Source: Haliotis cracherodii (taxonomy: Eukaryota). From it: a stretch of 64,000 nucleotides of DNA. The stretch lies in contig NW_027266286.1 of assembly GCF_022045235.1 (NCBI RefSeq), positions 57,164,001 to 57,228,000 on the forward strand, in the 5' to 3' direction. Below, piece by piece: positions 1 through 56,200 of this stretch (position 1 is the first letter of the stretch; each line of letters begins with the position of its first letter). The translations under genes were made by a program, and so were the position numbers. The notes below the pieces were generated by a model. The model did not search any database and was not told where the DNA came from. It saw only the letters and a program-made list of their open reading frames with translations.

Positions 1-339
1 AATATGGCTTGATCAAATTTGTTTATCTTATGCATTTGATCAACATTATTCAATCATAATAACACAGTATTTAAGTAAGTCCCTTCAATGTAAATTGAAC
101 TTTCTGCCTTCTTAACCATTGTAATCATGAGAAATGTTCTGTGGCAGTGAATGATTAATTTACCATCGATATTCATAAATTTGTATAGGTAGTGTATCAA
201 CGGTAAAATGTATTGATACACTGATATCGTGACATACGATGACATCCCTATGCTAAAGCGTTCAACATGTTCAAGAATCCCTTGAAAACATGACAAACAA
301 TTCTAATCATGCTAACAAGGGAGATAACCCTGCCTAGAC

Positions 340-13800: not shown

Positions 13801-16800
13801 TATACCGAACTAAAATTAGTGGCCCATTTGAGTTCGATATAACCGTAGTTTACTGTATTTAGTTTATGTTTCGTGTTGCTCCAAGGTTAAAGTTCGGACA
13901 GCCGGTCAGGAAAAGCCGTTTATCGTGTAAACTTCAAATTAAAACATTATATGTAAATAACCAAAACGCGAACTTAAACTATACAGTTTGACCAAGAATC
14001 ATTTTAACTTCATGTTTAAAACCAGTGACCCAAATAACGGGTTAACACAAGGGCAGATATCATCGTTGTAAGAGATTATCATTAACTATTCAATTTTTAC
14101 TGTTTTGGCTGAAAAGTATTCCCAACATATATTAAGTCGACATAAACTGTTGAACACGGCTGCTTTTGATCAGGCAATTACGATCCGACTGATTATGTCA
14201 TAGATGGTGTTTCCGATACTATAACCCACCTTTTTCGCCTTGTCCAGACTCTTTCAACTGAAGGGGCTGTCGGGAAGCCTAGTGGTTAAAGCGTTCGCTC
14301 GTCACGCCGAGGACCCGGGTTCAAATCTCGACATGGGTACAATGTGTGATGCCCATTTCTGGTGCCCGCGGTGATATTGCTGGAATATTGCTAAAAGCGG
14401 CGTAAAAGAATACTCACTCACACTCACTATCAACTGGACTTAAATAGTTCTGACTGCGGCGTTACTCATCATCCACTCACCCACTTTGTAGTTTAGATAA
14501 CCGGTAATTTATTCCCCCCAGCTAGTAAAGATGAGGAAGTGCAGCTGACCTGTGGTCTACAACCTTCACCTACGACAACTAGCGCACCCCCAGGTATGTA
14601 ACACCGTCTAGATAGGACATGCAACATGGCCTACGGGGACATGTGGACAACATCATGACTATGTATAGCTGAATACCTGTGTCAGTCAAAGAAGCTGCCA
14701 GCCCATCCCGCCCGGAAGATAGGGCCCGCTGGAAACAGCCGCGCTCGTTATTTGCTTTAAACATACAGCAGTTTGTAGCATTTTTTTACTTGTTTATTGT
14801 GCATCTGCAGGGGCTAGGCATTTCTATTTTCAGTAAAAAAAACTCCAGACGTTACAAACTATATTAATATATCCTCGGAATCTCCTTTTTGTATTATGTT
14901 ATATTTTCTCTGTTTGATCCCTTTGTTGACGCTTGTAACTAAGGACGCTGTTGTTAAGGGGGGTACTTGTTTTCGAATTTCCTGATGGGATAAATATCAG
15001 AATAAAAGTCATAATTGTTTTTTTAAACATATATATGTCCCTGATGAGGCTGAAAATAATAATTTGTCCTCAGGTTTAAAAAGGAAAGATTTAAATCTTT
15101 CACTGTTTATGCAGGCTGTACTGAAATTAATGTGTTGCTTTAATAATAAAGTGTTTGGCCCCTGCTTAATTTTCAGTGAAGAAAAGTTCTATTTCTTGAA
15201 GTTATGGCTGAAAAATATATTGTGTCGCAACTAAACAACGTAAGCTACATGTCAAATAATTCTGATGGACTTACTTACCTCTAACGACCATTCTGAGAAA
15301 CACATGAAGATGAAGATGATGTTTAATCTTTAATCACTTGCTGGTATTGTTCCAGCCATGGTCGTCCCCAAAGAAAAGTGGCCCAACAACGTCCAGCCTA
15401 AAGTTATAGACCCACCTCAGCGTCAGCCGGAACACAGAAAAGGTAAAACCTAGGTTACGGCGTTGAATCTTCACGTGAAAGACGGAAGAGTAGCCTGGTG
15501 GTTAAAGCGGTGGCTCGTCTCATCGAGGGGCGGTGGGGTAGCCTGGTGATAAAAGTGGTGGCTCGTCACACAGAGGGGCGGTGGGGTAGCCTGGAGGTTA
15601 CAGCGGTGGCTCGTCACTCCGAGGGGCGGTGGGGTAGCCTGGTGATTAAAGAGGTGGCTCGTCACATTGAGGAGCGATGGGGTAGCCTGATGGTTAAAGC
15701 GGTGGCTCGTCACACCGAGGGGCGGTGGGGTAGCCTGGTGGTTAAAGCGGTGGCTCGTCACACCGAGGGGCGGTGGGGTAGCCTGGTGGTTAAAGAGGTG
15801 GCTCGTCACACCGAGGGGCGGTGGGGTAGCCTGATGGTTAAAGCGGTGGCTCGTCACACCGAGGGGCGGTGGGGTAGCCTGGTGGTTAAAGCGGTGGCTC
15901 GTCACAACGAGGGGCGATGGGGTAGCCTGGTGGTTAAAGCGGTGGCTCGTTACTCCGAGGGGCGGTGGGGTAGCCTGGTGGTTAAAGCGGTGGCTCGTCA
16001 CACCGAGGGGCGGTGGGGTAGCCTGGTGGTTAAAGCAGTGGCTCGTCACACCGAGGGGCGGTGGGGTAGCCTGGTGGTTAAAGCGGTGGCTCGTCACAAC
16101 GAGGGGCGGTGGGGTAGCCTGGTGGTTAAAGCGGTGGCTCGTTACTCCGAGGGGCGGTGGGGTAGCCTGGTGGTTAAAGCGGTGGCTCGTCACACCGAGG
16201 GGCGGTGGGGTAGCCTGGTGGTTAAAGCGGTGGCTCGTCACAACGAGGGGCGATGGGGTAGCCTGGTGGTTAAAGCGGTGGCTCGTTACTCCGAGGGGCG
16301 GTGGGGTAGCCTGGTGGTTAAAGCGGTGGCTCGTCACACCGAGGGGCGGTGGGGTAGCCTGGAGGTTAAAGCGGTGGCTCGTCACACCGAGGGGCGGTGG
16401 GGTAGCCTGGTGGTTAAAGCGGTGGCTCGTCACAACGAGGGGCGGTGGGGTAGCCTGGAGGTTAAAGCGGTGGCTCGTCACACCGAGGGGCGGTGGGGTA
16501 GCCTGGTGGTTAAAGTGGTGGCTCGTTACTCCGAGGGGCGATGGGGTAGCCTGGGGGTTATAGCGGTGGCTCGTCACAACGAGGGGCGGTGGGGTAGCCT
16601 GGTGGTTAAAGCGGTGGCTCGTCACATCGAGGGGCGGTGGGGTAGCCTGGGGGTTATAGCAGTGGCTCGTCACACAGTGGGGCGGTGGGGTAGCCTGGTG
16701 GTTAAAGCGGTGGCTCGTCACAACGAGGGGCGGTGGGGTAGCCTGGAGGTTAAAGCGGTGGCTCGTCACAACGAGGGGCGGTGGGGTAGCCTGGTGGTTA

Positions 16801-21109: not shown

Positions 21110-21549
21110 TCACCGACACTCAGATATCTCAGACACTTACAAGAGGGTATAATATATAATGACTTTTCGTAAAATCTGTGTATTGCATACTATTAAGTAA
21201 CTCAATATAGTGCAAGAGAATTTTATTAACGGGAATAGCATTGGTATAATTATACATAATGTGGTAGCAATATGTACATTATCAGAAATAGTAACGTTAA
21301 AACACTTTGAGAAACACGTTTGCGTTGACTCTGGTTTCATCAATATTCAGCTATGTAAGGACAGCACGAAGTGAGTCATGCTGCAGACGTTGTCAACATG
21401 TGTGGTGCTGACAAACAAACTTCACGATCATCAATCACAGAGAATAATTTATTCGAACCCACGATCAGCGGGACTCTGCTCGGCTACTTGAGAGGCCTGG
21501 GGCATATTGTCTGTAGAAACAAAGTGTACACATGTTTAAAATACCCATA

Positions 21550-24500
21550 TTGACATGGTGTACATGTTGCATTGTCATTGTGTACTTGTTGGATTGCCAT
21601 AGTGTACATGTTTCATTGCGAAAGTGTCATGATATATTGCCATAGTGTACATGTTGGATTGCCGTAGTTTACATGTTGGATTGCCATAGTGTACATGTTG
21701 GATTGCCATTGTGTACATGTTGGATTGTCGTACTGTACATGTTGGATTGCCGTAGTGTATATGTTGGATTGCCATTGTCTATATGTTGGATTGCCATTGT
21801 GTACATGTTGGATTGCCATAGTGTACATGTTGGATTGCCATTGTGTACATGATGGATTGCCATTGCGAACATGATGGATTGCCATAGTGTACATGTTGGA
21901 TTGCCGTAGTGTACTTGTTGGATTGCAATAGTATACATGTTGGATTGCCATAGTGAACGTAATGGATTGCCATAGTGTACATGTTGGATTGCCATAGTGT
22001 ACATGTTGAATTGCCATAGTGTACAAGCTGGATTACCATAGTGTACATGATGGATTGCCATTGCGAACATGTTGGATTGCCACAGCGAACATGTTGGATT
22101 GCCACAGTGTACATGTTGGATTGTCATAGTGTACATGTTGGATTGCCATTGTATAAATGTTCGATGACGATAGTGAACATGTTGGATTGCCACAGTGAAC
22201 ATGATATATTGCCATAGTGTACATGTTGGATTGTCATAGTGTACATGATATATTGCCATAGTGTACATGTTGGATTGTCATAGTGTACATGATATATTGC
22301 CATAGTGTACATGTTGGATTGCCATAGTGTAAATGTTGGATTGCCATAGTGTACATGTTGGATTGCCATAGTGTAAATGTTGGATTGCCATAGTGTACAT
22401 GTTGGGTTGCCGTACTGTACATGTTGGATTGCCGTAGTGTATATGTTGGATTGCCATTGTGTATATGTTGGATTGCCATAGTGTACATGTTGGATTGCCG
22501 TAGTGAACAAGATGGATTGCCGTAGTGTACATGTTGGATTGCCATAGTGTACATGTTGGATTGCCATAGTGTACATGTTGGATTGCCATAGTGTACATGT
22601 TGGATTGCCATTGTGTACATGTTGGGCTGTCATTGTATAAATGTTCGATGACGTTAGTGAACATGTTGGATTGCCACAGTGAATATGTTGGAGTGCCATA
22701 GTGTACATGTTGGATTGCCATTGTGTACATGTTGGATTGTCATAGTGTACATGATATATTGCCATAGTGTAAATGTTGGATTGCCACAGTGTAAATGTTG
22801 GATTGCCATAGTGTACATGTTGGATTGCCATTGTGTACATGTTGGGCTGTCATTGTATAAATGTTCGATGACGTTAGTGAACATGTTGGATTGCCACAGT
22901 GAATATGTTGGAGTGCCATAGTGTACATGTTGGATTGCCATTGTGTACATGTTGGATTGTCATAGTGTACATGATATATTGCCATAGTGTAAATGTTGGA
23001 TTGCCACAGTGTAAATGTTGGATTGCCACAGTGAACATGTTCGATGACCTTAGTGAACATGTTGGATTACAACAGCGAATATGTTGGATTGCCATAGTGT
23101 ACATGTTGGATTGCCATTGTGTACATGTTGGATTGTCATAGTGTACATGATATATTGCCATAGTGTAAATGTTGGATTGCCACAGTGTAAATGTTGGATT
23201 GCCACAGTGAACATGTTCGATGACCTTAGTGAACATGTTGGATTACAACAGCGAATATGTTGGATTGCCATAGTGTACATGTTGGATTGCCATGGTGTAC
23301 ATGTTGGATTGCCATAGTGTACATGTTTGGCTGTCATTGTATAAATGTTCGATGACGTTAGTGAAGATGTTGGATTGCCACAGTGAACATGTCGGATTGC
23401 CAGAGCGTACATTTTGGATTGTCATAGTGTACATGATATATTGCCATAGTGTACATGTTGGATTGCCATAGTGTAAATGTTGGATTGCCGTAGTGTACAT
23501 GTTGGATTACCAGAATGTAAATGTTGGATTGCCATAGTGTACATGTTGGATTGCCGTAGTGTACATGATGGATTGCCATAGTGTACATGATATATTGCCA
23601 TAGTGTACATGTTGGATTGCCGGAGTGTACATGATGGATTGCCGTAGTGTACATGTTGGATTGCCATAGTGTACATGTTGGATTGCCATTGTGTACATGT
23701 TGGATTACCGTAGTGTACATGTTGGATTGCCGTAGTGTATATGTTGGATTGCCATTGTGTATATGTTGGATTGCCATAGTGTACATGTTGGATTGCCGTA
23801 GTGTATATGTTGGATTGCCATTGTGTATATGTTGGATTGCCATAGTGTACATGATGGATTGCCATAGTGTACATGTTGGATTGCCATAGTGTACATGTTG
23901 GATTGCCATAGTGTACATGTTGGATTGCCATTGTGTACATGATGGATTGCCATTGCCAACATGTTGGATTGCCATAGTGTATATATTGGATTGTCATAGT
24001 GTACATGATGGATTGCCATAGTGTTCATGATGGATTGCCATAGTGTACATGTTGGATTGCCGTAGTGTACTTGTTGGATTGCCATAGTGAACGTAATGGA
24101 TTGCCATAGTGTACATGTTGGATTGCAATAGTATACTTGTTGCATTGCCATAGTGAACGTAATGGATTGCCATAGTGTACATGTTGGATTGCCATAGTGT
24201 ACATGTTGGATTGCCATAGTGTACAAGCTGGATTACCATAGTGTACATGATGGATTGCCATTGCAAACATGTTGGATTGCCACAGCGAACATGTTGGATT
24301 GCCACAGTGTACATGTTGGATTGCCATTGTGTACATGTTGGGCTGTCATAGTATAAATGTTCGATGACGTTAGTGAACATGTTGGATTGCCACAGTGAAC
24401 ATGTTGGATTGCCATTGCGAAAATGTTGGATTGCCACAGCGAACATGTTGGATTGTCACAGTGTACATGTTGGATTGCCACAGTGTACATGTTGGGCTGT

Positions 24501-25860
24501 CATTGTATAAATGTTCGATGACGTTAGTGAACATGTTGGATTGCCACAGTGAATATGTTGGATTGCCATAGTGTACATGTTGGATTGCCATTGTGTACAT
24601 GTTGGATTGTCATAGTGTACATGATATATTGCCATAGTGTACATTTTGGATTGCCACAGTGTAAATGTTGGATTGCCACAGTGAACATGTTCGATGACCT
24701 TAGTGAACATGTTGGATTACAACAGCGAATATGTTGGATTGCCATAGTGTACATGTTGGATTGCCATGGTGTACATGTTGGATTGCCATAGTGTACATGT
24801 TTGGCTGTCATTGTATAAATGTTCGATGACGTTAGTGAACATGTTGGATTGCCACAGTGAACATGTCGGATTGCCAGAGCGTACATTTTGGATTGTCATA
24901 GTGTACATGATATGTTGCCATAGTGTACATGTTGGATTGCCACAGTGTACATGTTGGATTGCCACAGTGTACATGTTGGGCTGTCATTGTATAAATGTTC
25001 GATGACGTTAGTGAACATGTTGGATTGCCACAGTGAATATGTTGGATTGCCATAGTGTACATGTTGGATTGCCATTGTGTACATGTTGGATTGTCATAGT
25101 GTACATGATATATTGCCATAGTGTAAATGTCGGATTGCCACAGTGTAAATGTTGGATTGCCACAGTGAACATGTTCGATGACCTTAGTGAACATGTTGGA
25201 TTACAACAGCGAATATGTTGGATTGCCATAGTGTACATGTTGGATTGCCATGGTGTACATGTTGGATTGCCATAGTGTACATGTTTGGCTGTCATTGTAT
25301 AAATGTTCGATGACGTTAGTGAACATGTTGGATTGCCACAGTGAACATGTGGGATTGCCAGAGCGTACATTTTGGATTGTCATAGTGTACATGATATGTT
25401 GCCATAGTGTACATGTTGGATTGTCATAGTGTACATGATATATTGCCATAGTGTACATGATATATTGCCATAGTGTACATGATATATTGCCATAGTGTAA
25501 ATGTTGGATTGCCATAGTGTAAATGTTGGATTGCCATAGTGTACATGTTGAATTGCCATAGTGTACATGTTGGATTGCCGTAGTGTACGTGATGGATTGC
25601 CATAGTGTACATGTTGGATTGCCATAGTGTACATGTTGGATTGCCATAGTGTACATGTTGGATTGCCATAGTGTACATGATGGATTGCCATAGTGTACAT
25701 TTTGGATTGCCACAGTGTACATGTTGGATTGCCATAGTTTACATGTTGGATTGCCATTGTGAACATGATGGATTGCCATAGTGTACATGTTTGATTGCCA
25801 TAGTTCAATGTTTGCTTGCCACAGAGTATATGATGGATAGCCGCAGTGTACATATTGTCC
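21550..25860. repeat. 22-bp satellite array (~190-195 monomers) with higher-order repeats
   Basis: Consensus GCCATAGTGTACATGTTGGATT. Variant blocks recur at offsets of 176, 220, 484 and 1474 bp, all multiples of 22. Confidence 0.97.
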
Positions 25861-26235: not shown

Positions 26236-29200
26236 TCAGGTGAAAACGACTACCCCACTACCCTGAATCAATTCCTTAGCATCAACATCTTCCATGTTCA
26301 TCAGTGAATAAATGCACTCCCTGTGTTTATGTTTCGGCTTCTTCCATTTCCGCCCCCTGTGTCGTCCGAAAGAAGTTGGTTTGTTTCGTCTTCCATGTAC
26401 GGCTGGCCTCGGCTGTTCATGCGATTTCAATGGCAATGTCCACTTTGGCCTATCCCTCCGTACCACAGGTTGTCCACCACCATCATGTGCGGTGACAAAG
26501 CTATTTGAAAACGTTACTTTTGGAAAGGTGACCAAAGTCGGGGTTACCCCAGACTGTTGACTTGTCGTTGTTCGTGACCTCATTTTGTAATATTTAGAGA
26601 AGATATTAGAGGGATTATTGTGCCGCACGTTCTCAACTAATTTAATTCGCCCTGGATGCCCTGTGTGATGCCGTGTCAACGGCCCTCGCTGGCGTTTGGG
26701 GAATGTATACAAAGGGGCTGTCGCTGATGGCTGTGTGAATTTCACTTTAGTCGGGGAAGATGTAACAGCAGTCGCGGACTGTTTCTTGAAATATGAAATA
26801 AGTGCGGCCGGATGGAATGGTCGTTTATTTGTAGAAGTTCTTTCATCTGTGAAAAATTGAAATAGTTTAGGATACAGATTAAAAGAAAAAATCTTTGTAA
26901 ATGCCAGTCATTGGGATTGTGAAAATTAAGAATAATAATGAAATCAGAATTGTATATTTCACATTGACAGGAACCTGCCCACCATGCTAATCAAGCGATA
27001 AGAACAACATAGGTAGATAGCAGAATCTCACTTATGAACACTTTGTGTAAAGTGTTAGCGTCTATTATAAATAAAAAGATACATGTATAAATATATGTAA
27101 AATATTTGACATAGTAACCCCGATACTAAGTAATGCTGCAGAAATATTGGGAGGTAGAAATTGTTGAATTCTTTCAGAATTACTTTTTCCAACTGAATCG
27201 ATATTATGGCAACGTAATACACTTGATTAATGTCAAGAGTTCCCTTATAATACTCATCATATGAACCTGAGTGCTGGTGTAGAAAATATCTAGACCTTCA
27301 TGGATTTTTCTACCATGCTTTCTATCACAGTGCAAGGATATCAATACACTTATATGTATTGGTAGGCGTCTGTAACTGTCATAGTTATTAAGGAATTAAC
27401 TTATACAGTGTGAAGGATAAGATTACCTTTGTACTTTGTACCTAATATCATACAACATGTAGATAAATGTGGTTATACGTTGGAGATTATGAGCCAAATA
27501 CAGAAAATAAAACTCTGTCTGTGTCTGTCTGTCTGTAAAGTTGTTTACTGCCAACTTTCCCCAGATAGTTTCTTTTAGTAGGCTGTACATTATCACGAGG
27601 GCATTCAGGTTTTGCTGGGTTCGATGTATCAATTTGAATAGCCATGGTCGAGCATGAGGTAGTCCGGTGTTATTATACAAATCTAGCCTGTCAAAGATTG
27701 TGTTAAATGTATCCTTGACGACAGCAGTTTACATTAAGTCTACGTCATCATTTCTCCAGTTTTAATTACAGATACACAAATATATTTTGTAGTTACTTGT
27801 GTTATGGCAACATATTGTAACATTTTTAACATACTTTGATTCATCTTCGTCGGCGTGTCGAAAGATGTTGATCGTACGGTTGTTGGGGAAGACGTTGATC
27901 GTACGGACATCGGGGGAAATGATGATCGTACGGATGTGAACGAAGACGTTGCTCGTGTGTGCATGAGAGAAGGCGTTGATCGTGCCGACGTGAAGGAATA
28001 CGTCGATCGTACGGACGTTATGGAAGAATCTGAGAGTATGGACGTGAGCGAATACGCTGGGCGTGCTACCGTGACACTTGGACGTGTCGTCGAAACGACG
28101 AGATTAATCCCTGACTTTGTTTCCTCGCGCTTTCCTCCTCTGGAACGATCAACACTTTTTTCGTCCACAAAAGGAGTAGTGATGCTACCTGCCCCACTCG
28201 CATGTCCATTTGTAAATTGTCTGTCCATATCGAAAGCCACCTTATCCTGCAGCTTACATGCACAGTCAGCGTTAGTCACGCCGTTCACTGTGGCAGGGTT
28301 TCTGTTACTGGTATAGTCAAGGTCGCCGTTCATGATACCTCTTCGCTTTTGTTGCCTGGCTTCTGCTCTCTCAGCAGATGAAGCATAGTGTCCAATGAGC
28401 TGGAATCATAAGGGACATCTTCAACCTTAATCAAATTTGAACGAAGGCAATATTTTTCGAAGAAGATGCTCTTCGCCATCCTAAACAAACATACCGAATT
28501 CGAGTTGCAATATTGACCTGGCAATAGTTTTTTGAGGCGCTCGCGTTTCAATATGACTTTTTATTTCTACAAGATGGTGCACAGTCGTGAACAGAGAGTT
28601 TTGTGGAATAGGGACCTTGCAAGTGCGTTTCAGACTCGTGAAAAGCCATACTTGTTGTATCTGTGAGGAGGTTATTGGAAAATCCCAAATATCGTTTACG
28701 GTATCTGTTTCGTCCAATGAGAAAGACTCAACTGACGAATCTTTGTTCTTGAGCGAGTCCGTTTGAAAACAGCTGTAGCGAGTTTCTCCTACAAATATAC
28801 AATGATATATGATATGAAAATCAAAGCACCCATAAGGGCCTTGAACATTCAATTTGTTAAAAATTGATGAATGAATGGGTACATAGNNNNNNNNNNNNNN
28901 NNNNNNNNNNNNNNNNNNNNNNNNNNNNNNNNNNNNNNNNNNNNNNNNNNNNNNNNNNNNNNNNNNNNNNNNNNNNNNNNNNNNNNNNNNNNNNNNNNNN
29001 NNNNNNNNNNNNNNNNNNNNNNNNNNNNNNNNNNNNNNNNNACATAAAATTGATGGTTAGATAAGTTTATGCTACCCAGCTTAGAGCAACAATCCTGTAT
29101 CTTTTTCTTCATGAAAGACCTTCCGTGAAGATTAAAGGGCAGGCTATGGTTATCTCTGGAGCACAAGCGGTCAATGCGGCGTCTACGGACATGCTCAAGA

Positions 29201-30176
29201 CAAGGGCTAGCGTCATATTTCTGTAAAAAGATCAAATGTCATATAAGTGGCACATGTTCTGGTTACAAAGCATCGTACGGAACAGAAATCATTAAGTGTT
29301 TATTTTTCCGTTTGGTGCGAAATGACTAAAATTTACTATGTGCAAGTAAAGTTGTCTTCACAGGATGTTCTAAGAAGTTACAAATGAATGTGATAATAAA
29401 ACGAAGTTCATTCTTCATTCTTCATTCGAGTAGTATTCAAAAGTAGAACATACTTCGGTATTTTGTTTTTGCCAGGCTGTTGGTGCTATGGTATTCTCGC
29501 AGCAACTGAGAACATCCAGCCTTCTGAGACGAACCACCTCCGTTATATCAACAACGTCTGACTCGTTGGGTGCGGTGCTGTAACGTCGCTGCAGAAGTCT
29601 ACGTTTGAAGACAACGTCACTCGACGTGAACCGCTTTGTCAGATTGCACAACCCACGGATCAGATGTTCTCTATTTACCTTTAATAAAACTGAACGTATG
29701 AGTAAATAAATGTTGGTTAATGGTCTTTCAGTGTATGTGGTGGACACCAGAGAGGTGCTCAGGTCAGGAGGATTTTGTTTTCTATTGTTTTGTTTGTTGT
29801 TCAAAGCCGCACTCCGCAATATTCCAGCTATATGACTAAATATTCGAGTATGGACCAGACAATCCAGTGATTGATACCATGAGCATCGACTCACGCAATT
29901 GGGATACGATGACATGAATCAGCCAAGTCAGCGAGCCTGACCACCTGATCCCGTTAGTCGCCTCTTACGACAAGCATAGTCACCTCTTACGGCAAGCATG
30001 GATTGCTGAAAACCTATTCTTACCCGGATCTTCACGGATCATGCAGTTATTTGAACGTATTTCTTATGATTATTGAAAGCGTTTGTCGCTTTAATGTTAC
30101 AAAACCTGTGTCTTCTTTATCCCAGATGAAGGTGTCATGTCCAACATTCCGTCGCTCCGGGGCATTGACATCATTC
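26236..30176 (-). CDS. Paralog of the 40022-51864 gene: albumin/ECM1-like CC..C module, S/T-rich stalk, basic tail; 5' exons not identified; partly degenerate
   Basis: Exons 30176-30106, 29678-29454 (..LDVLSCC), 29220-29076 (CLEHVRRRRIDRLC..DCCSKL), 28788-28652 (GETRYSCF..FSLDETDTVNDIWDFP), 28399-27835 and 26846-26236. The first five have the same intron phases as the plus-strand paralog, and the three Cys-module exons align with it. Confidence 0.75.
27600..27767 (-). pseudogene. Decayed anaphylatoxin-like pseudo-exon of the minus-strand paralog
   Basis: Reads LKLEK**RRLNVNCCRQG, then after a frameshift DTFNTIFDRLDLYNN. Aligns with LRKRKRKLDLKLTCCRHGKDAGEVFEVETGLYNH of exon 48763-48964. Confidence 0.6.
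28887..29041. other. Assembly gap (N run) inside an intron
   Basis: Run of N. Both flanks contain AAAATTGATG, suggesting a collapsed short repeat. Confidence 0.99.
29786..30039 (-). mobile_element. SINE-like family C (non-tRNA structured head)
   Basis: Reverse complement begins ATCCGTGAAGATCCGGGTAAGAATAGG, has a doubled TGCTTG.CGTAAGAGG.GACTA motif, and ends GCTGGAATATTGC.GAGTGCGGC. Confidence 0.85.
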
Positions 30177-40021: not shown

Positions 40022-43000
40022 ATGCGCCAGTCTTTGTTCCTTGAAGCATTGTTCATCATTGGGCTGCTGGCCACCTGGGAAGGTAAGGGTTTCTTAAATA
40101 TTTGACTATTTAGCATGTGGGGTACGTAGTGTGTCTGCTCTGCACCTGATGGTATTATTGTAGATTATTATTTATTCGTCGCGACATCATGCAAGATTGC
40201 ATGTAGTTTTATGGATGGTGTAAGATGTCTGTTGTATGCTTTGCTTTGTATGAACTAAAATAGATGTATAATCATCATTACAAACACGCAGATAGCTTTC
40301 CTATTAGATGGGAACTTTCGCATATATTGCACTCATTATCCATTGTCCATTTAACTGTATCATCGTACTGACACAGGTAGTGGGTTAGGGTCGGATGCGG
40401 TCACGATGGGTCAAATTGTCAGAAACAAATTAGAGGCCTGGCAGATTATGTAGTATGCAGTATAAAACCACAATCTCTAGGACATGACCAACTGCAGCCT
40501 ATATGCGAATGTGACGATCTTACTGGACAAACAATGTTCCAGTGTTTTAACAGAAGCTGGCATATCAACTGAAAGCGACTAGCTCAACAATCAAGCGAAC
40601 GGGCCAGACACCAGGAAGCTTGTGGTGCAATAAATGCATTCGCATATCTAAAACTCAACAACAAGAAACGTGTTCATGAGGTGAAATGGGGTTTAACGAC
40701 ATGTATGCACACGTGTTTGTGATAACTTGTACTGGTCCTGACTTTCATAGTGCTAGCCAAATGAGCTACCATGCCGCAGTTTAACACGGATACTACATTC
40801 AAACACATTATACTCAATCCGATCCTACAATTAGCTTAACAATCTATTGTTTGGGAACTAGACGTTTATGTTATTGAAGGTCTGTTTATACTATGTTCAT
40901 AATCTGTTCAAATGGCCTTTTTTGGTTTTGAAATATTTCTTATAATGAACCACTGAACACCGAACACTGTCTCCACTGTATTATATTATTTAAAACATTG
41001 ATATTTCTCAATTCTTATTACAGAACGAGTATTCATCTAATTTCGTTTTGCTTTGAAACAATTGGTCTTGTAAGATAATGTTCTTTTAATTTTGTTTATA
41101 AGCTTGTATTATGATTTTAATTTTTCTTCGGTGTTTCTCAAACTCGAAAATATTAATAAGAAAATTAAAAGTGTTTTTACAGCAACGAAATAAAATGGCA
41201 ACTCATACGTGATATCTTCCTGTAGGATCTAAGCGAACTGTCCACGAGTGTAAGCTGTATCAATCCAGGTTCCCAAACGTGGTTATCTAGACTCAAGTGG
41301 TATTGCTGTGTTTACTAGTCTTGTTATCACATTTATATCTATCACAGTTATCTAATAATTGATATACATGGCACGGACACAATTTAGCGGTCACATGACG
41401 ATCGTGCACGTGATCAGAAGTTAGCTATAGTTAATGAATTTATCGATACCATTTTTGGCTGAGGATTTTCGTATTGAAAGAGGTGGAAACTTTAAATTTG
41501 TGTTTTATTCAATAAACGTGGAGCAAAGTTTTCGTCATATTGTCGCTCTAAATATACATTGAACAGTCATCGGGTTAGTTTAGTTTTATTAATAAAAAAC
41601 CTGGTAGGAAGGTTGCCCATTGTGGGAGTATATACACGTGACATAAAGTGTGTTATTACTGCTTAATTGATTCGTGATATTCAATCTTTAGTGCGAGCAA
41701 TATTCAGTTACATTAAGTTTACGCAGGTTATTCTTTCTTACGTCCAATTTAGATGCCGTGATGTTTAAGAATATCCAGATGAAAGTGTTGAAATACCTCA
41801 GAATTCATGAAACAGTTTTGATCGTTACATCCTGTCGATGTTTGATATCGCATCACAACAGTCCTTTTATTCACTTCACTTGTCTTTATATCCCACGTGT
41901 GTAAATGCCTCATTACATTGCAGCGTACGCCCTTGACTGCCCGGGGGGCGTGATACCGACAGGTCTGACCTTGGGTGTTAATGACGTCAGTGATGGACAT
42001 GCCCTGTTCTGGTTGAACGTTGGCCGAGCCCGTTTCGGATACAAGCCAAACCATTACTACAAATGTAAGCTAAGCATTCACACCCACAAGTATACATTAT
42101 ACATGTTGAAAGAATAGCGTGCAGCATACACACCCACAAGTATACATTATATATGTTGAAAGAGTGCAATGTGGTATACAAACGCACAAGTATACATTCT
42201 ATAAACTTCCAAAGAAGGATTCGCGTTGGAATTTCGGTACAGAACTAATGTCAATTGTTGTAAATCGAATTCCAATGTGTATCAGAAGGTCAAAATGGTT
42301 GCACAGTATGAGTGTCCTTGTATATGGTTTTGAGGTTTAACGTCCTGAAATGTTACTCACACTGTCCACTACCCGCCTTCTGTAATGGCTGTCTAATGGA
42401 AGCCTTATCAAGGCATAACAAGAACATGTTTTTTTGCCTCCTGAAGTGAACATTCCGTGACATAACTACCGACATGGACCTACCATAGCTCGTTTTGTGT
42501 CAAATTCGAATGACGTGACTCTCCCCATAGCCGTCCGTCATGTTACGCTCATCTGAGAGAAATCTTGTGCAAAACTACTGATAAAAGCAATGGCATAGCG
42601 AAGTTATGGTTCGTATTTATCATAATATAACTTTGATATGCTACACTAAATTTTTAGAGATTCAAACATACAGCTATGTATAGCTTTTCTTTTTGATTCA
42701 GTGGGCATCACGACTCTGGACACCGACTTTCCATTCAGCGAGGCCGTCTTGACCCTCCAGGAGGAGGACCCTTCACGTGGGTGTGGAACTGGTCACTTTA
42801 AGTTCGATACCCCCCACCTGTACCAATTCAAAGACTGCCAAGAAGTTCTGCTCACGAACAAGAAAAAACCTATGACTGAACTACCTCCCGTTATGTGGCG
42901 GGCGCCGGAATGTGGCTGTGTTCTTATAAAGTAAGATAATAACTGCATTCTCTTAAGAATATCATCATATGTAATCGCATTAGTTCAAAGGAGAAGATTT

Positions 43001-46000
43001 TGTGAATGTCAATTTCTTCATTGTGCGGATAAAAATTTCCCGGTTACATTTTTGCGCGTCAAAGGCACCGCAATTCGCTTTTGCAGAATTGCGTCCCTTG
43101 GGCACGATAGAAACCTATGACTGTGGGTTCGAATCCCTGTTCGCTCCGATTATGTTTCTTGGTTTGTCAGCATACCCGTGCTCGTGGATTTTACCAAAGT
43201 TGTAAAGGTCTGCGACCTGCATCACTTCGGGCTTTCCTCAAAACATTAAGCTGACATGCTCACTCTCGCACGTTAGTGTGGATAGACACACTCTCTGAGT
43301 ATGTTCACCTTTTTGCGCGATTGGTAAATGAGTTAGGGAATTCTCTGAGACATTGCTTGTCTATATACGATAAACATGATGACACCCATAAAACATGGTT
43401 CTTTTATATGTATTTCAAAGTCCAATTTAAGTAACAATTCACGTCATTTTTTTGTCAAATATTCACTTGACACTGATCAGGTGGTTTGTACTCGCAATGT
43501 ACCCACTCAGTTTTCAATCAATTTCAATCGATGATAACAAAACACACATACTTCTGAATCCAAGCCTGCATGTTCTTTCAGTAAAATAATCAAAATATAA
43601 ACGACTAAAAATGAACATGAAAATAACTTTGTTTAATAAGTGTCCGAATGCGAAAGTGAACGTACTTTCAGGTTGTTTAGTTTATGTTAATAAGTGAAAC
43701 AAGTTTTTTAAGGGGTGGACTTTCAAGAACCAAGAAGATTTTTAAGATGTTTCATATTTTGTTTTTAGTGCTACAGTTATAAGCAATGGAACGACATACT
43801 ATATGGATCAGACACCTTCTGGCTTCCTCTCAAAGCGACTTTGCCCAAGACAGAATCTACATGGTAGGTCATCGACCTTAACAACATGACTATATAACTC
43901 CTATACTTCAGCATGGACGTACATGTCTTAGAACCATGACTGATTATTGCAAATTGGCGAAGTATGCAGTGAGGTTAGTGTAACTTCTATATGTCCTTGT
44001 AGTCCGTTTTAGCCGTTTTCAGCACTCATAAAAATGCCATCTTGACACCATATTGGAGTATAACGGGTTTCGCATTATGAGAATCAAGTTAACCTTGTTC
44101 CTCCTCAAGTACAGATAGGGTTATTTAAAACTTATTTAATTTGTCGATGGTTATGATACTGTCCATTATGAAGCAAATGATTTGTGTTTGTGCTTCAGTG
44201 TTCAGAACCAAATATACACGGTCAGTTAAGACAGAGCAACCCACCACGACCACAACTACAGCCAGTACAACACAGAAACCGCCACAGAAGAAAAAGGTGA
44301 GTTTACTTCTTTGTCAGAGGAGCCTTGCTAATGCATAGGAGCCTTACACAAAGCCACCATTGCACTACGATAAGGGGAGCTTCTTTACCCATAGGGGCCG
44401 TGGGGCAGCCTAGTGGTTAAAGTGTTCGTTCGTGATGCTGAAGACCCGGGTTCGATTCCCCACATGAGTACAATGTTTGAAGCACATTTCTACTGTCCCC
44501 CGCTGTGATATTGCTGGCATACTGCAAAAAGCTCCGAAAACCATAAACCATCGGTGTAACGATCTGTTGCCTCAACTAGTAGGCTATACTCGGTGTAACG
44601 ATCTGATGCTTCAACAAGTAGGCTATACACATTGTAACGATCTGTTGCTTCAACTAGTAGGCTATACTCGGTGTAACGATCTGTTTCTTTAACTAGTTGG
44701 CTATACTCGGTGTAACGATCTGTTTCTTCAACTAGTTGGCTATACTCTGTGTAACGATCTGATGCTTCAACGAGTAGGCGGCTATACTCGGTGTAACGAT
44801 CTGATGCTTCAACTAGTAGGCTATACTCGATGTAACGATCTGTTTCTTCAACTAGTTGGCTATACTCGGAGTAACGATCTGATGCTTCAACTAGTAGGCT
44901 ATACTCGGTGTAACGATCTGATGCTTCAACTAGTAGGCTATACTCGGTGTAACGATCTGTTTCTTCAACTAGTTGGCTATACTCGGTGTAACGATCTGAT
45001 GCTTCAACGAGTAGGCGGCTATACTCGGTGTAACGATCTGATGCTTCAACTAGTAGACTATCCAGTACATGTCCGTGATCTTGAGGAATATTTCCATCAT
45101 TGCCATATTATTGACTTGTTTATGCACATGTGGTTTTGTCACACAATTATATTAAATATACGAATTTGTCCAACTGCGAATGGCTGAGATGAATGTCTCT
45201 TAATTCTTTGGACACACTTATGGATGTACGTTCGGCGGACTACCTTGCATTCCATTTCTCTCAAATAAAATATTTCTGTTGTGTCGGTATATTTCATCAG
45301 TACATTTCATCACCTGAGGATTACGACATGTAGTAATTATCTTAAATATCCAGAGAGAAAACAACCATGCAAAAAATGTCATTATTCTTTACAGTTAAGT
45401 CGTCCAGAGAGGATGGATTTATTGTGTCAGATCTCGCTCCATTTCAACGGCGCTGAGTTGTTGGCCAGGGAGGTTTTCCTTAGGAGAAGGCAGATAACGA
45501 GACTCAACCTAACTAGCCTAATGCGGACTGAACTGGCTCTTGACCAGCGCAAACTGGATATCCATGAATGTTGCAAGATCGTGGTAAGAAGATTGACGAT
45601 CAAACGAAAACAGCGATTTCACAATAGATTGAGACCGGGACAATATTGTAAATTTGATCAGAGAAAAATCCTAGATAAGACAAATATTCCATTTATGCAA
45701 TAACAGACATATATTTCGCATATTCGAATAATGTCAACGTGACATGCTGCTATGCAAGTCAGCCATCATCAGACCAAACACGGACAAAAGTCTTGAACAC
45801 CGCATTGTCTCAGTTCAACATCTATCAATGTTTTTTTCTTTCAGAGCACGACCAAGAAGACGCGGTGCTTTGACGACATGCGACGTCGTCGTATCGACCG
45901 GTACTGTAGAACGGGACACCCAGACGTCCCCTTTACCGCCAGACGGGATGTTTTCATGAGGGAAAAAGAGGAGAGATGTTGCTGGAGACTTGGTATGTTG

Positions 46001-49000
46001 CGGATGAAGTTCTTTAATAGCCTCTGGTCCCACGTAGGAAAATATCGGATTTTGATATTAGTACAATGTCTTTTCAATGATATTTGTGTGGGTTAGACAC
46101 AACTATATTATCAGTGACTTCATAAACCCAATACTCTGGTTTAAAGATTTAATGTGTTGACGAAATGTCGAAACAGTAACTTGTTCGCAAAGATAATTCC
46201 GAGACCCCTAAATCCTGGTGTGTCCTTTCGCTTATAAATTTATACGACCCATGAAGGGTCCGGGTTAGAATAGGCCTCAGCAATCCATGCTTGTCGTAAA
46301 AGGCGACTATGCTTGTCGTAAGAGGCGGCTAACGGTTTCGGGTGGTCAGGCTCGCTGACTTGGTGAATGCATGTCATCGTATCCCATTGCGTGGATCGAT
46401 GCTCATGATGTCAATCACTGGATTGTCTGGTTCAGACTCGATAACTTACAGACCGTCGTCATATAGCAATAATATTGCTGAGTCCAATATCCATACTGTA
46501 CATGAAAATACTCACTATCGTATTCACGTCCACAGGCGAACCACGTTATCAGTGCTTTGCCCACAATTCGATTTTCAAGACGGTGAGGGGAAAAAACTCC
46601 GTGGATTATTCTTTTGACGAGATGGATCCCGTCAACGACATCGGGGACTATCCTTCAGAAATACGAGAAGTAGAAATGGTAATTATACATACCTCATGAA
46701 CGATTTTGTATCGTGAGGCTGTCGGTGTTTATTTTGATTAATGTATTGAGACAATACATCTAGAGATCGTGCAGCAAGACGGTAAAAGGCAGTCGGTGTA
46801 AGGAGTAAAGGAAATTTACACAGAGATTACATTTCTAAAATCTATTCAGTGTACATGCACGTAACAAATTATCTCATTTAAGTTTATTATGTTCTGGCGT
46901 TTATCTGAAATTAAATAATCTTGACAAACATAATATCTCGATGGAATTTCATTTATTAGCCTGAGAACATCCTCATGAATATATATTCTTCGCACAGCAA
47001 CACAACACTGACTACTTTGTTGATGATGCTACACAAGACGTTGTAATTAGAGGGCGTGAAACTGTCACCTACACCATGTCTACTGGACCGTCATCGTCTA
47101 CGACAATGGCTACAACAACATCTGAGGCACGTGACAAAGGTACTTCAAAGACACACACCACCAGGAAGTCTGACCAGGCGGAGTCATCCACATACAGCAG
47201 CGTTTTGAGCGACGTTCCACGTCGGCAAGCTATCGACGTTAAAACGCCGGTTGCTGCGATATCTGCGGTGGACGCGGAGCTAGATGGTAATTAATGTGAT
47301 ATATGTCTTTGACCCACATTAGAAACGTAATGGTGTTTTCTTTGTCGAAACTCACCTTCCAGGTACATTTATAATGCACCAGATTCCATTCACCAAATGT
47401 GTGAGGGAGTGAGTTTGGTTTTACGCCACTTTTAGCAATATTCCAGCAATATCAAGGCTGGGGATACCAGATATGGGCTTCAAGCATTGTACCCATGTCG
47501 GGAATCGAACCCGGGTGTTCGGCGTAACGAGCTGACGCTTTAACCACTAGGCTACCAAGTGAATGTTCATGTCGCTATTACCCCGGTCAATTGATCATTC
47601 TTCCATGATATTGAAAAATGCTTGATTTTATATTGGTTAAAAAGAGGTATCCTTTTACCTCCTGATGCCTCGTTTAAATGAAGCCTTTTCATACAAAAAA
47701 TGCATATGAAAACATCGATCTTTCGACAGCCTACGCATCGATGCATACAACAGTGGAAGTCAAAACCTTAAGATTATTGTATACGTTCGATATAAGAACG
47801 ACAGCTTATCAAATATGATAATATCTATATTAGAACACATCCAGTTAAGTAACACACACACTTACTCAGGGCCACATAATCATCGATCGCAAATGTGAGC
47901 AGTCTCTCTCATATCGTCGTCTGCAGCCAACAGTTAACGGCAGTGATCGCCATACTTCAGGGTGTTTTCTGTTGGCAATGGGTGTGACAGTAGGCACGTT
48001 TTACAACAATACTTCCCCGGGTTGAAATGTTGAACATAAATGAAGACCGAGCTTGTCCTCTTGGTTCATACAGTTTGTAAATAACACTGTCGTCGTGAAC
48101 AACTATTTTAGCAGCAATGGACAATGACGAGTAACCTAGTTTAGCCAGGATGAAGTTCTGGGTAGAGATATGTAGTCATTCGTAATATGTATTACTTTTG
48201 GGAAGATATGTCAAACAAACTATTACATAAGTACAACTTCAATATAAATCTACTCTTGTTATTTGTTGGAGGCATAAATTTGTTCAGCATTTATTTCTCT
48301 TTACTTGACTTATTTGAGTCCAAGGAGTGCAAATAGGACATGTTGCAATGAAATTAAAATTTTGAAGCGTTATTTGACAACTTCTATTTGAAACAAATAT
48401 GTGTTCCGAACTGCATTTTTGAACTAGTCAATACTATGAGTATTTTAATCTTGAACTTCTGTAATATTTATTGCATTTAGAAGTACGTGTGACCTCATTT
48501 TGGAATGTTCTAATATAGCAGACCTACGCGTTCCAAGACAACACCGTTTTCGAAGCGATCTTGCGCATCATGGTGCGCACTCGATTTTCTTGTGATAAAG
48601 CTAAGACAGGCCTAAAAGTATAAAATAACTTGCCCGATAGTGTCATTTCTCTCAATGTCTATGACGTAGTGTAGGGAATGAGACAGATTTACTTTCAGGA
48701 ACTCAACATTACAGTTCAATATTGAATTTTGGTGATGTTTATGATTATGTTCATAATTTCAGCCTTAAGAAAACGGAAGCGGAAGCTGGATCTGAAGCTC
48801 ACCTGTTGTAGACATGGAAAAGATGCTGGCGAAGTCTTCGAAGTTGAGACAGGACTTTATAACCACTGCCGTCATCAGTGGAAGATATACCGGAGGAGCC
48901 TGAAGACTGGGAAGAACATGTGTATGAACAAGTTCATGGAATGTTGTGTCGACGAGGCTGGCATGTAAGTATTTTAACGAACTTCAATTGCGTTTAAAAT

Positions 49001-51864
49001 TTGGATTATGATTAAAATACAAACCTAAAGACCTAAAGTAAAAAAGAGGATGAACAACATGAACGGATTTTTTTTTATTGCGTGACTACAAATTTACGGA
49101 AAATAGAAAGGTAAAATAGTGGACTTTTGATAACGTTAGTTCAAAAGAATGTACGAAGAATCTCGAAATTAATCAAGAGTAGAAAGTAACCCCAAAAGCC
49201 ACTATTAGAATATATTTTTTTGATTAACTTCGATATAATCGAAGGTATTATGTTGTTCTGAACTGAAATAGCTGAATCACAATACTCTCTTATTTCAGAC
49301 GCAAAAACCATGATGTCACAATTTCTAAAACATTCTATTTTGATATTCGCATTCCTTCAAACCATGTTACCCATTCAACCAATATTAGACACTCGAGAAA
49401 TATTGAAAGTAAATTGTTCCATACCATGCAGGATCTAATTCAGCAAGTGAAAAAATACAAAATGAAAGAAATGCCGCACCTAAACAATAACGTATTAACA
49501 ATTTCACCCATTTTAATTTCTACCAATATTTCCAAAATGCCCGCAAAACAGAAACCCCCAGATCGACAGAAAAACATTGTAAGAGATAATGTCTCCGATA
49601 TTGACGTAGATGTATATAAAACTATTGAAACCAACATGATCCCAACCTTTAATCATGAAACCAAGGTCAGTCCCTCATTCACTCGTTACACCATGGTCAC
49701 ACCCGACAGCACACCCGACAGCACACCCGACAGGATTATCATTCAACCAATGGTCACTGATAACCAGAGTAACCAAGAAATGCAACACATTCTAGGTATG
49801 AAAACAGTCGTAAATTTGCTTGCGAGTATATTCATCATTGTTAGTTTATTTTTATCATTGCTTAAATATAGATCGCCTAAACCTTCATACCTAATACCTA
49901 AATAGTTATTTTGTACATGCCAAAGTCACTTTTATGTTTGTCCTATGAAGAAACTAAATTGGAATTGGTCTTCGACAAAAGCTGTTGAAATTTTGGTGCC
50001 ACATTTAAGTGTGGACATCCGGGAAACTCTCAGATTCTATCTAGCTCTCCTCGAATGCTCGTACCCGGGGAGATGCCCTCACATTCAGATGATGGTTTGT
50101 CTGTTCTGGATTCGATCTAGTTTTTTTATTCAGAAACTCTGCCCTGTTTTCCTATACTTACTCTGCGGTATATTAACATGGTAACGAATACATATTTTGA
50201 TAATGCTATGAGATTTGATGTCAGCACATTTACTCCCTTCATAACGATGGCGAATGGATTTTGAAATATATCATGTATATACCTTCCCATAATAGAATCT
50301 AACAACAAAAGGCTCATTGAAGGATATATTGTCATATATTGATATTACCCTTTTCGTTCTATCTCTAACTGCGGGGATGGTGTAGCCTAGTGGGTAAAGC
50401 GTTCAGTTCGATAACTCACATGGGAACAACGTGTGAAGCCCATTTCTGGTGTCCCCTGTCGTGATATTGCTGGAATATTGCTAAAGAGGCGTAAAACCTT
50501 ACTCTCTCACTATCTCTAACTAACATTTGCTTATACTAACATATTTTGCATGCGGCATCTACTGGGATTAAATATGGAAATTACACATTCTTTGTGTAAT
50601 TCAACTTTCTATCAGTATTTATAAAATAAATAACAGTTGATTTACAGGAGAGAATAAAATCTCAGTTAGGAAATTCTCATTGAGTATTGCTAACGCAAAT
50701 GAGAAAGACTGACACAAGTCAAGTTACACAAGTAAAGAACGATATGTTGACGCTCCATTTCAATACATATATATTGTCATTTTTGTATCTGCTATCACCA
50801 ACTACCATCTGTAACCTACTATGCTTCTATGAATATATTATTATGCGTTAGACTTTGAGATGAACAGTTACTTCAATAGTTACAAATCCAAATAATTTAA
50901 CATTTAACATTTTAATGAAAACAGTTATAATGTACTATTATAAGGCTATCAATTTTATTAAATGACATAAATAACACTGACACTGAACAGTTAACAGGAA
51001 CAAGGAAATAATTCTAATAATCTTTGCAGACAGTGAAATTCTAAGGCTGAATAAATATTTGATTTCATCAAGTATAACAATAATATTTCTTGTAAGACTC
51101 TTTATCAGGTGTGTTCCACGTTACGATTTCCCAAAAGTTCAAGATTTAATATAGTACGGTTCAATTACAGATCCTCAACACAAGCAGCCCCGACGCACAT
51201 TTCGTATCGCGGCCATCCGATTGCGCAGGTTGCGCAAGCGACACCGACGAGATTACTACTGAGCCTAGGAACAGAGGCGGGTAAATCCACACCGCCAGGT
51301 CAAGATCCTCCCTTGAGAGAGAAATCGAAAGGACCCAACCAACCAACTGGATCCACCCCTACCACATACAGAAAATCGACTTCCAACCCAAAAGCAACAT
51401 CCATCCTTCCATCCATCAAATCATATTCAACACGTGCTCCGGAACTGACGTCACCTTCATCATCTTTCATACCGGAAGCTGTTACCCGAAAGGTTAAGGT
51501 AGTGAGGGTTGAAGAACTTGATGAAAGCAATGGCGATGATGTTGAATCTGAGGACGCTGACCAAGACGACGATGGCACAAAGAAAGAGAACAAAGACGAA
51601 GACGATAAAGAAAAAGAAAGTGACAGACGTGAATCAGAAAAGGATCTGACTTTAAATGTTTCAAAGAATCTCAAAAGAAGGCGTGGATTGCGGAGATCAC
51701 GTAAACAGACACCTATGTTACGGTCGCTAGAAAAACAGATAAGTGGATCCAGGCGTAACGTTAGAAAATCAAACACTGATTTTAACTCCAAGTCAAGGAA
51801 AAGCATGAAACAGAGGCGAAGACACAGGAGAAAGCGACCACATCGTTCTCACTTCAAGAAATAA
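40022..51864 (+). CDS. Secreted mosaic protein: signal peptide - Reeler (F-spondin-like) - Thr linker - albumin/ECM1-like CC..C module - S/T stalk - anaphylatoxin-like module - C-terminal tail
   Basis: Exons 40022-40082, 41924-42064, 42702-42930, 43769-43863, 44199-44296, 45395-45583, 45845-45992, 46536-46678, 46998-47286, 48763-48964, then 49299-49905 and/or 51171-51864. All GT-AG and phase-consistent. Reeler motifs YKPNHYYK..WRAPECGCVLI.ATVI..LSKRLC. ANATO-like CCRHG..C..CMNKFMECC. Confidence 0.85.
42077..42203. repeat. Short intronic tandem repeat, 3 degenerate units
   Basis: CACACCCACAAGTATACATTATA repeated. Confidence 0.7.
44394..44545 (+). mobile_element. SINE family A
   Basis: GCAGCCTAGTGGTTAAAG..GGGTTCGATTCCC head and diverged tail. 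Confidence 0.8.
44551..45061. repeat. 39-bp minisatellite (~13 copies), intronic
   Basis: Unit GGCTATACTCGGTGTAACGATCTGATGCTTCAACTAGTA. A +3-bp variant recurs 237 bp apart. Confidence 0.93.
46247..46482 (+). mobile_element. SINE-like family C
   Basis: ACCCATGAAGGGTCCGGGTTAGAATAGGCCTC head and doubled TGCTTGTCGTAA.AGGCG motif. Confidence 0.85.
47401..47556 (-). mobile_element. SINE family A
   Basis: Reverse complement of the family A consensus. Confidence 0.82.
50372..50510 (+). mobile_element. SINE family A with internal deletion
   Basis: Head and tail present; TSD CTATCTCTAACT. Confidence 0.82.
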
Positions 51865-53203: not shown

Positions 53204-56200
53204 ATGCCTGATGTCATCAACAAGAGCAGTTTGTGGCTTGTAATCCTACTATACTCGGATTGTGATACAGGGTTGGCGATTGATATTCACGCGGCTAGCA
53301 TGGAGAATTGTAGGCCATTGGACATAACGAGAAATACTTTTCTTGATCCTGAAAACGTTTTTCTAACCCTGCAGACGTGGAACTACTTCTCCTGCTGCGG
53401 CCTGTGCACCTATCAAGAGGGTTGCCATTACTTTCGGTGGGAAAGCCAAAATCGTACATGCTCTCTTCTGAGTAGCAACACAAAGCATGATGTCTTAAAA
53501 TGTTCGGTAAGAATATTGCGATCAGTTTCAAAAATTGGTGCCATCCTAATTAAATTCCTATTGAATAAGGATGGGTCTACACCTGAACAAATTGCCACGT
53601 TATCAGATTCTGGTTCTGGCTGCAAATATTATTCTCCATTGTGCAATAAGCAATACAATGTCAGTAAGGGATACAAATATGTACCCTGTTTTTATATTCC
53701 CGTGTTTGTTCAGGAGAACACTTGACTTGCCTTTGCATGTATTCATGATGGGCGCCACAGGTGGGAAAGGATGCTTTCATCTTTTCGCGAACACCTGGTA
53801 TATTCACTATTTGATATTGACTCATAAGCACATGATTATGATAATTTTATTATCGGAATAGTACAACGGGCTTTGCTTTTGTCACTTTTATTTACATGTT
53901 TTGGATAAAGTTTAGCTCCCCGGCATTCGTAATCATTTACTTTCCCCTAAGCGGCTTGTGCCAGTTACAAGACCACTGATATATTATATCGGTAATATAA
54001 CCTGTCTGCAAAGAAAACATTTATATCATATCATCGTAACAAGTGAGGTGTTGGATCCAGTAGTGGTTGGTGCCCTCAGTCTTTTTCTTGTTTCTGTTAA
54101 TATGAATTGGAATTTCTGCTGGTATTGGCAAAATCAAAACAAGGGGATTTGGATACACACTTAAACGTAAGCTTCGGGTAAATCGATGATCTGGTATCAT
54201 TCAATGATGATCAAATAAGCAGTTCCCTTCCACTTATTTACCCATCTATACTAGAAAATATATTAGACAAATAAAACCGCTTCAACTGTTTCATGTTTAG
54301 ATCGATGTATAAGTGGGGATAGAGTATGCAATAGAGTGTGGCTAGAGGAATGACTTCCAGTTGTTAACTTTCCGTAACGGTTTATTTCGAATAATGTTAC
54401 AGCAGACCCAGGCTTTGGTGCCTACATTTCATAACATCTCTAATTGATTGAGTATATTTTCAAAACTGTATCTATAGTGAGTGAGTGAACTGGCTTTTAA
54501 CGTCGCTTTGAAGTTATATAACAGTGTATCAGCTTGATGTGGGAGGAAAGCCCGAAGTGATGCAGGTCTTAGACGTTTACCACTTTGGTGAGACCCACTA
54601 GCACGAATATGGTGCTGACAAACCCAGACATATAATTGTGGCGAACCGGGACTCCAACCCACAACCATAGGTTTCTGGCGTGCCCAAGGGATGCAACATT
54701 ACACAACGAATTGTGGCGCCTTATACGACTTGGCCACCCGTGCCATAATTTGATTATTGCCATCGTATATCTCACTAATCAAGATTGGTGACTCTTGCTT
54801 TTAGGTGTACTTGTTTCGAGGACTCATCACATTCTGTCCAAAATAGTCCTGTAGGGTAATCTCGGCGTTGTTGTTATTGACTTAAATTCATGAATGTTTC
54901 AAATGATTTAAAATGTCTCCTATAAATATTTCAAAATAGTATGTGCAGGCAGAGGGTGGAAAATGCTCTTTTTCGAAAAGGAATAGGGAAAGCAAATAAC
55001 CCTGGAAACTATATATTTTATACAACTTTATTTTCGGGCAAGGATGAGAAACAATTAAGCTTCGTTGTGAGATTGCGAATATATTCATATATTGGCATTT
55101 TACCGAATATATTTCATATAATTTAGCTTCAGTGAATACGTTCAATGACTGGTTCAAATATGTTCCCAAAGTGCGTTTTATTGAATGTATCTTTTGTTTT
55201 AGTACCCGGGAAACCATGGGTGTCTCATGAGTCCATGTGGGTATCGGAAGGTGTATGTACCAGTGGAGGGTGCGCATGGCTACATGTGTCTCAAAGGTAA
55301 TGGGCGAATTTCGACAATGTTGATTCAGTAATTAGATCCATAAATGGATAGTTCAGACCATCATTGGTCAATCAATAGTGGCCGAGAAATTATAGATAAG
55401 AAACAATGTTTCTCTGCTTCGGTTAAAAAACAGTTGCCATCATAAAAAAATCTGGGGATTTAAATGGGTTGAGTGTCAGTGATTTGAGTAATCCACAGAG
55501 GCACCCGTGAAGATCCGGGGTAGAATAGGTCTTCAACAGCCCATGCTTGCCATAAAAGGTGAATATGCTTGTCGTAAGAGGCGACTAGCGGGATCGGGTG
55601 GTCAGACTGGCTGACTTGGTTGATGCATGTCACCGATCCCAATCGCGTTGGTCGATGCTCATGATATCAATCACTGGATTGTCTGGTCCAGACTCGAGTA
55701 TTTACAGACCGCCGTCATATAGCTGGAATATTGCTGGGTGCGGCGTAAAACAACAGCCAAACCAAAACCAAAACCAAACATCATCCACAGAGGCAAGTTC
55801 GTCATCGTTTCATAATTTATGTAGTGATTATTAGAACCTGTGAGTGTATGGTACCATATCAGTTACATGAGACAATCGAGAACGAATATCGAAATTCACA
55901 CGAAGAGTGTGTGTCCCGGAAACATAGACTTTGTAAGGTTTCCAAAGTAGTAATTTAGACAAGTTAGACAATAGTCAATCAACACTCGGGCTCATTAAGC
56001 CACTTACAATTGGATATTACATCGGTGCAACATCGTTAAAATGACATATTCAATGCGTTATACAACTGCAAATCTGATAATCGTTATAATGAAAAAAACC
56101 AACCCTTAAAATAACAATCTTTCTCATTAGAATGCCAGTAATAGATATTTGATGTGACCACAGCAAGTACGACATTTTGAAATGTTTTTAATGCGTTCAA

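Follow-up and report, generated by a model that had tools for sequence, protein, structure and literature searches.

In human albumin, subdomain IIIA alone houses the drug and fatty-acid site. A likeness in cysteine pattern between albumin, ECM1 and Endo16, a calcium-binding extracellular protein of gastrulation, was noted in the 1990s. In the openly available part of a 2017 survey, the albumin family PF00273 is confined to vertebrates except for one mosquito sequence, and ECM1 is placed in the albumin family (PMC5480655); the ECM1 repeat is described, in the available part of a second paper, as a double loop with the motif C-(X12-38)-CC-(X7-10)-C (PMC11524739). Here we analyze a 64,000-nucleotide stretch of the Haliotis cracherodii assembly GCF_022045235.1 (contig NW_027266286.1, positions 57,164,001 to 57,228,000 of the forward strand; hereafter the window), in which two head-to-head genes, gene A on the plus strand and gene B on the minus strand, lie about 8.9 kb apart and each encode one copy of an eight-cysteine module. 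With a probability of roughly 70%, this module is a disulfide-locked all-helical unit homologous to albumin IIIA and the ECM1 repeat, gene A represents, in abalone, a conserved family of secreted bilaterian proteins that combine a Reeler domain, one or more albumin-subdomain repeats and an anaphylatoxin-like domain, gene B is a reduced local duplicate, and the function is that of a matrix scaffold.

The module occupies three real exons in both genes (Table 1), and the motifs reported in an earlier note on this DNA were all found where it had placed them, with intron phases (0, 0, 1 and 0) that are indeed identical in A and B. That note described the module as the best-conserved block of the two paralogs; it is conserved, and it is in fact the only homologous block (BLASTP E 2e-23; next-best piece E 1.3). 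The two copies are identical in 54 of 173 columns, and their local score is 220; randomized sequences reached at most 63 when fully shuffled and 94 when the cysteines were fixed (2000 shuffles of each kind). The cysteine spacing is C-47-CC-10-C-12-C-23-CC-9-C in gene A and C-47-CC-21-C-12-C-23-CC-9-C in gene B. In the structure model of the gene A module, which is 160 residues long, helices are predicted at residues 3-14, 19-23, 26-31 and 39-60, the arginine run falls inside a further predicted helix (65-86), and the tail is modelled as two confident helices.

Searched by structure, the module finds albumin subdomain IIIA as its best match. Its helix layout aligns to residues 382-490 of human serum albumin (HSA), seven of its cysteines are in register with HSA domain IIIA, and two of the spacings (12 and 9) are exact. 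By Pfam, all four Haliotis modules matched PF05782, the ECM1 family, below its 25-bit gathering score (gene A 15.6 bits; an unnamed relative, P0026, 19.9 bits), and one of the four matched PF00273 (E 0.08) without reaching the gathering score of 34.4 bits, a cut-off passed only by a hemichordate relative, P0045. Single exons gave no informative match against Pfam, sequence searches of the PDB with P0005, a 4-row profile, a 34-row profile and P0045 returned only the F-spondin Reeler or noise and no albumin, and the ESM Atlas held no usable match for P0052. The earlier interpretation of the module as albumin/ECM1-like is borne out, with amendments. Homology to albumin and ECM1 is well supported, and we regard the module as a protostome variant of the albumin/ECM1 superfamily.

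The differences from both known families are considerable. A full PF00273 domain, as in serum albumin, alpha-fetoprotein and afamin, comprises subdomains A and B over about 176-190 residues and usually occurs three times, whereas the module is one A-type eight-cysteine unit followed by a cysteine-free linker. It is 14-17% identical to albumin IIIA and differs from it in a loop about nine residues longer before the second CC pair, in its R.R[IV]D helix and in its acidic tail. If the pairing of albumin IIIA is carried over, as we assume, the disulfides would be 11-60, 59-71, 84-109 and 108-119 in module numbering; secretion and a binding role are likewise suggested by analogy. With ECM1, a secreted protein, the module shares albumin-subdomain-like repeats with a C-Xn-CC-X7-10-C double loop, to judge from the available part of the published description (PMC11524739). 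The second loop fits the ECM1 motif (C-23-CC-9-C), but the first is longer (C-47-CC-10-C in A and C-47-CC-21-C in B), and gene A has one repeat instead of several, together with Reeler and anaphylatoxin-like domains.

The same homology could also be coupled to an albumin-like function, the module transporting lipids or small ligands through haemolymph or mucus in a hydrophobic pocket. Such a role would suit a module whose closest structural match is the ligand-holding subdomain and which conserves hydrophobic residues of its own (P92-F93, M101, Y117 and F120), but only one subdomain is present, no B-type subdomain follows it, and its setting among a Reeler domain, an anaphylatoxin-like domain and long low-complexity linkers is typical of matrix proteins; we consider a carrier unlikely. 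Still less likely is that the resemblance to albumin and ECM1 is convergent and the module an independent CC-rich helical bundle, since sequence profiles, a language-model search and structure searches agree on the family and the subdomain, the seven cysteines keep their register and exact spacings, and intermediate proteins reach the curated albumin cut-off.

The sequence RRRRIDRxC, which had been proposed as the signature of the module, did not hold up as such, its exact form being limited to 7 of the 61 proteins of the family, of which five are from Haliotis. A looser RR.RID..C is present in 26 of the 61, and the family signature is RRx-R[IV]DxxC. The view that residues other than cysteine are conserved fared better: these positions are under constraint, with the four-arginine run being a Haliotis-biased version of RRx-R[IV]D. 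Of the 34 rows of an alignment, 30 retain R76, 26 R77, 13 R78 and 32 R79; D81 and C84 are invariant, and both CC pairs and the two cysteines between them are invariant or nearly so. The acidic tail is similarly conserved (D140 in 29/30 rows, P144 in 30/31, N146 in 26/31 and D147 in 27/31). The helix carrying R76, R79 and D81, like the helix of the acidic tail, probably either packs against the domain or contributes to a charged surface for binding. It is very unlikely that the arginines are kept as a furin-type convertase site at which the precursors are cut to release a peptide such as the anaphylatoxin-like end: RRRR does fit R-X-K/R-R, a pattern found once in gene A (residue 284), and an RKRKRK run lies ahead of the C-terminal domain, but the arginines sit in mid-helix between C71 and C84, the P2 arginine is present in only 13 of the 34 rows, the following residue is Ile, Val or Leu, which convertases disfavour, in 33, and the invariant Asp81 points to a structural role.

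Relatives of the module were sought by searching 1.84 billion representative proteins with a four-sequence profile (E<=0.001), which resulted in 59 matches. Of the 56 matches outside Haliotis, 30 were looked up. Sixteen of these are from molluscs of four classes (Patella, Lottia, Nucella, Candidula, Lymnaea, four from Plakobranchus, Crassostrea, Solemya, Tegillarca, Dreissena, Mactra, Octopus and Liolophura), five are from other animals (Capitella, Glandiceps, Saccoglossus, Acanthaster and Branchiostoma), and nine records carry no organism; no vertebrate was found among the 30. None of the mollusc records has a name more specific than uncharacterized, hypothetical or Reelin domain-containing. 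The usual mollusc form has a Reeler, one module (C-46..52-CC-9/10-C-12-C-22..24-CC-9-C) and a C-terminal CC-17..22-C-17..22-C-6-CC domain. All three elements are present in gene A and in the hemichordate proteins of Saccoglossus, deposited as 'endo16-like 235', and Glandiceps, in which the two flanking domains enclose six full repeats plus partial ones where molluscs have one. In the gene model from Capitella, three to four repeats precede the C-terminal domain and there is no Reeler, the Acanthaster isoform is without the C-terminal pattern, and in Branchiostoma neither flanking domain is present. Molluscs mostly have one repeat, and the annelid, hemichordate, starfish and amphioxus matches have three to six or more. 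An acidic tract in the tail (at least 15 D/E in 30 residues) was found in 15 of 21 relatives and a basic end in nine of 21. From the 68 modules extracted, trees were built with 43 and 24, and in the tree of 43 the mollusc-type rows form a single group (99/99). Plakobranchus has several copies (P0010, P0039, P0043 and P0050), three with close locus numbers, and some of its models contain two or three Reeler-plus-module units per protein, which may reflect local expansion or fused gene models. Another set (P0055, P0062, P0059, P0052 and P0064), made up of small secreted-looking single-module proteins without a Reeler and of two-module proteins with the C-terminal domain, groups with Capitella outside the mollusc clade and may mark further phyla.

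The Reeler of gene A lies above the Pfam cut-off (PF02014, E 4.9e-7, 30.8 bits against 21, in a scan of the ortholog), a domain also known from F-spondin and Reelin, and the family profile finds the F-spondin Reeler in the PDB at E 2e-9. Its C-terminal domain is likely, though unproven, to be anaphylatoxin-like. The domain models well (pLDDT 90) and resembles fibulin and C5a in its cysteine pattern and through weak fold matches; Foldseek ranks C5a first to fifth (E 0.8-2.6), whereas a wide structure search prefers generic bundles, with fibulin-2 anaphylatoxin modules at rank 48, and Pfam gives no match for this part. Spondin_N, TSP1, DOMON and EGF domains were not found in gene A by Pfam. The protein of gene A begins with a hydrophobic stretch and ends in a charged tail, and between them Ser/Thr-rich linkers set apart three domains of disulfide type. 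By analogy, it most likely functions as a secreted matricellular or extracellular-matrix scaffold, in which the module would offer a protein-docking surface, as proposed for ECM1, and the Reeler and the acidic/basic tail may tether the protein to matrix, glycosaminoglycan or calcium.

Because the ECM1-Endo16-albumin likeness has been recognized since the 1990s, examples from non-vertebrate deuterostomes are not new; the protostome branch and the common architecture appear to be new. The proposed link to sea urchin Endo16 itself comes from the depositors' name, and a word-limited search for that protein with an ambulacrarian alignment returned, among 7180 candidates, only the first member of the query. 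The open literature, to which the search was confined, yielded no description of the mollusc family or of the Reeler, albumin-repeat and anaphylatoxin architecture and no papers on the locus identifiers or 'endo16-like', and the family is not described in the accessible parts of PMC4729200, PMC6003135, PMC4224354, PMC5562858 and PMC3050790. The main text and two supplements of the hemichordate genome paper contain no endo16, albumin or ECM1, and an 'endo16' match in a brachiopod paper was discarded as a citation artefact. In the accessible part of the H. laevigata shell proteome paper, Reeler proteins are listed as ferric-chelate-reductase-like.

The relatives across molluscs and in a worm suggest that the fold is far older than vertebrates. 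An albumin-subdomain family in four mollusc classes and an annelid, with an architecture like that of the hemichordate 'endo16-like' protein, would date the fold to the bilaterian ancestor and favour matrix docking, not transport in blood, as its first role. We see an even chance that molluscs keep a minimal one-repeat form, that ambulacrarians expanded it into Endo16-like proteins and that chordates lost the flanking domains as ECM1 and serum albumin evolved, in which case the mollusc module would be a present-day model of the ancestral, still single albumin subdomain. As this module is small and confidently modelled, its structure, a map of its disulfides and ligand-binding assays could test the origin of albumin directly.

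All junctions of gene A are GT-AG. From its start at 40022, ten exons can be joined by such ends, exon 10 continues through a donor at 48965, and an eleventh exon, once joined, gives an open frame of 762 residues. Splicing was examined in four sequencing runs (X1, X2, X4 and X12) that we guess to be RNA, no run being recorded as such. Contigs from three of them (X1, X2 and X4, from three studies) are joined across the module introns at points no more than a few bases from those predicted, a single contig of run X2 extends from exon 1 to exon 9, and X12 gave only partial pieces. Among the contig matches listed, none is a piece of gene B. Over the queried exon, gene A matches H. rufescens LOC124116410, a record named uncharacterized, at 98%. 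RefSeq isoform X1 uses an alternative 3' exon at about 49303-49794 (+) and reads the last exon in another frame, and isoform X2 is without about 67 acidic codons (51450-51652); in the window these codons are in frame, and they look like the acidic tract of the family.

Gene B starts at 31170 (-) and retains the repeat only. Profiles built without Haliotis found the three module exons in both genes and the Reeler and C-terminal six-cysteine domain in gene A alone, and whole gene B proteins matched no Pfam family. The acceptor ahead of the first module exon of gene B is AAG and not YAG. Gene B also matches H. rufescens LOC124116411, and all of its matches are named uncharacterized. In the tree of 43 modules it is a long branch within the gastropod group, and a clade of A and B was neither recovered nor rejected (p-AU 0.335). 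Gene B is probably a local duplicate that has evolved faster and retained nothing but the signal peptide and the module; by analogy it could serve as an independent docking module carried on a long disordered arm and might modulate gene A. A candidate upstream exon at 31471-31409 was dropped in favor of the first exon listed in Table 1, and a 155-base assembly gap (N) at 28887-29041 lies in the intron between module exons 2 and 3.

Table 1. Exons of genes A and B, in positions of the window.
Feature	Position	Strand	Evidence or remark
Gene A exon 1, hydrophobic N-terminus	40022..40082	+	Read by eye as signal peptide; same N-terminus in H. rufescens LOC124116410 proteins; covered by run X2 contig
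Gene A exons 2-4, Reeler domain	41924-42064, 42702-42930, 43769-43863	+	Pfam PF02014 on ortholog
Gene A exon 5, Thr-rich linker	44199..44296	+	Joined exon model
Gene A module exon 1, phase 0/0: first Cys, predicted helices, first CC pair	45395..45583	+	Spliced contigs (runs X1, X2, X4); structure model
Gene A module exon 2, phase 0/1: C-x12-C helix with RRRRIDRYC, conserved PFT loop, second CC pair	45845..45992	+	Spliced contigs; conservation in 34 rows
Gene A module exon 3, phase 1/0: GEPRYQCF, then acidic DE.DP.ND..DY tail predicted as two helices	46536..46678	+	Spliced contigs; model; conservation
Gene A exon 9, Ser/Thr-rich linker	46998..47286	+	Exon model; contigs
Gene A exon 10, anaphylatoxin-like domain (CC-19-C-17-C-6-CC)	48763..48964	+	
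Gene A last exon: low-complexity stretch, acidic tract, very basic C-terminus	51171..51864	+	Open 762-aa frame; tblastn of RefSeq isoforms X1 and X2
Gene B exons 1-2, first signal-peptide-like	31170-31122, 30176-30106	-	No Reeler exons
Gene B module exon 1, phase 0/0, about 11 residues longer after CC	29454..29678	-	100% identical over exon to H. cracherodii protein P0008
Gene B module exon 2, phase 0/1, with RRRRIDRLC	29076..29220	-	Profile built without Haliotis rows, iE 1.4e-12
Gene B module exon 3, phase 1/0, with GETRYSCF and DE.D.VND tail	28652..28788	-	Non-Haliotis profile
Gene B last exons, Ser/Thr/basic low-complexity tail	28399-27835, 26846-26236	-	No anaphylatoxin-like domain

Downstream of gene A, the open frame at 53222-53722 (+) matches a PAN/apple-like domain slightly below the Pfam cut-off (PF00024, E 4.4e-4) and is probably a separate gene or exon. 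Tandem arrays at 21549-25857 (22 bp x 196), 15490-16913 (48 bp x 30) and 44551-45061 (39 bp x 13, inside intron 5 of gene A) yield long spurious open frames. At about 350-2150 (-), broken open frames resemble the remnant of a reverse-transcriptase retroelement, perhaps DIRS-like.

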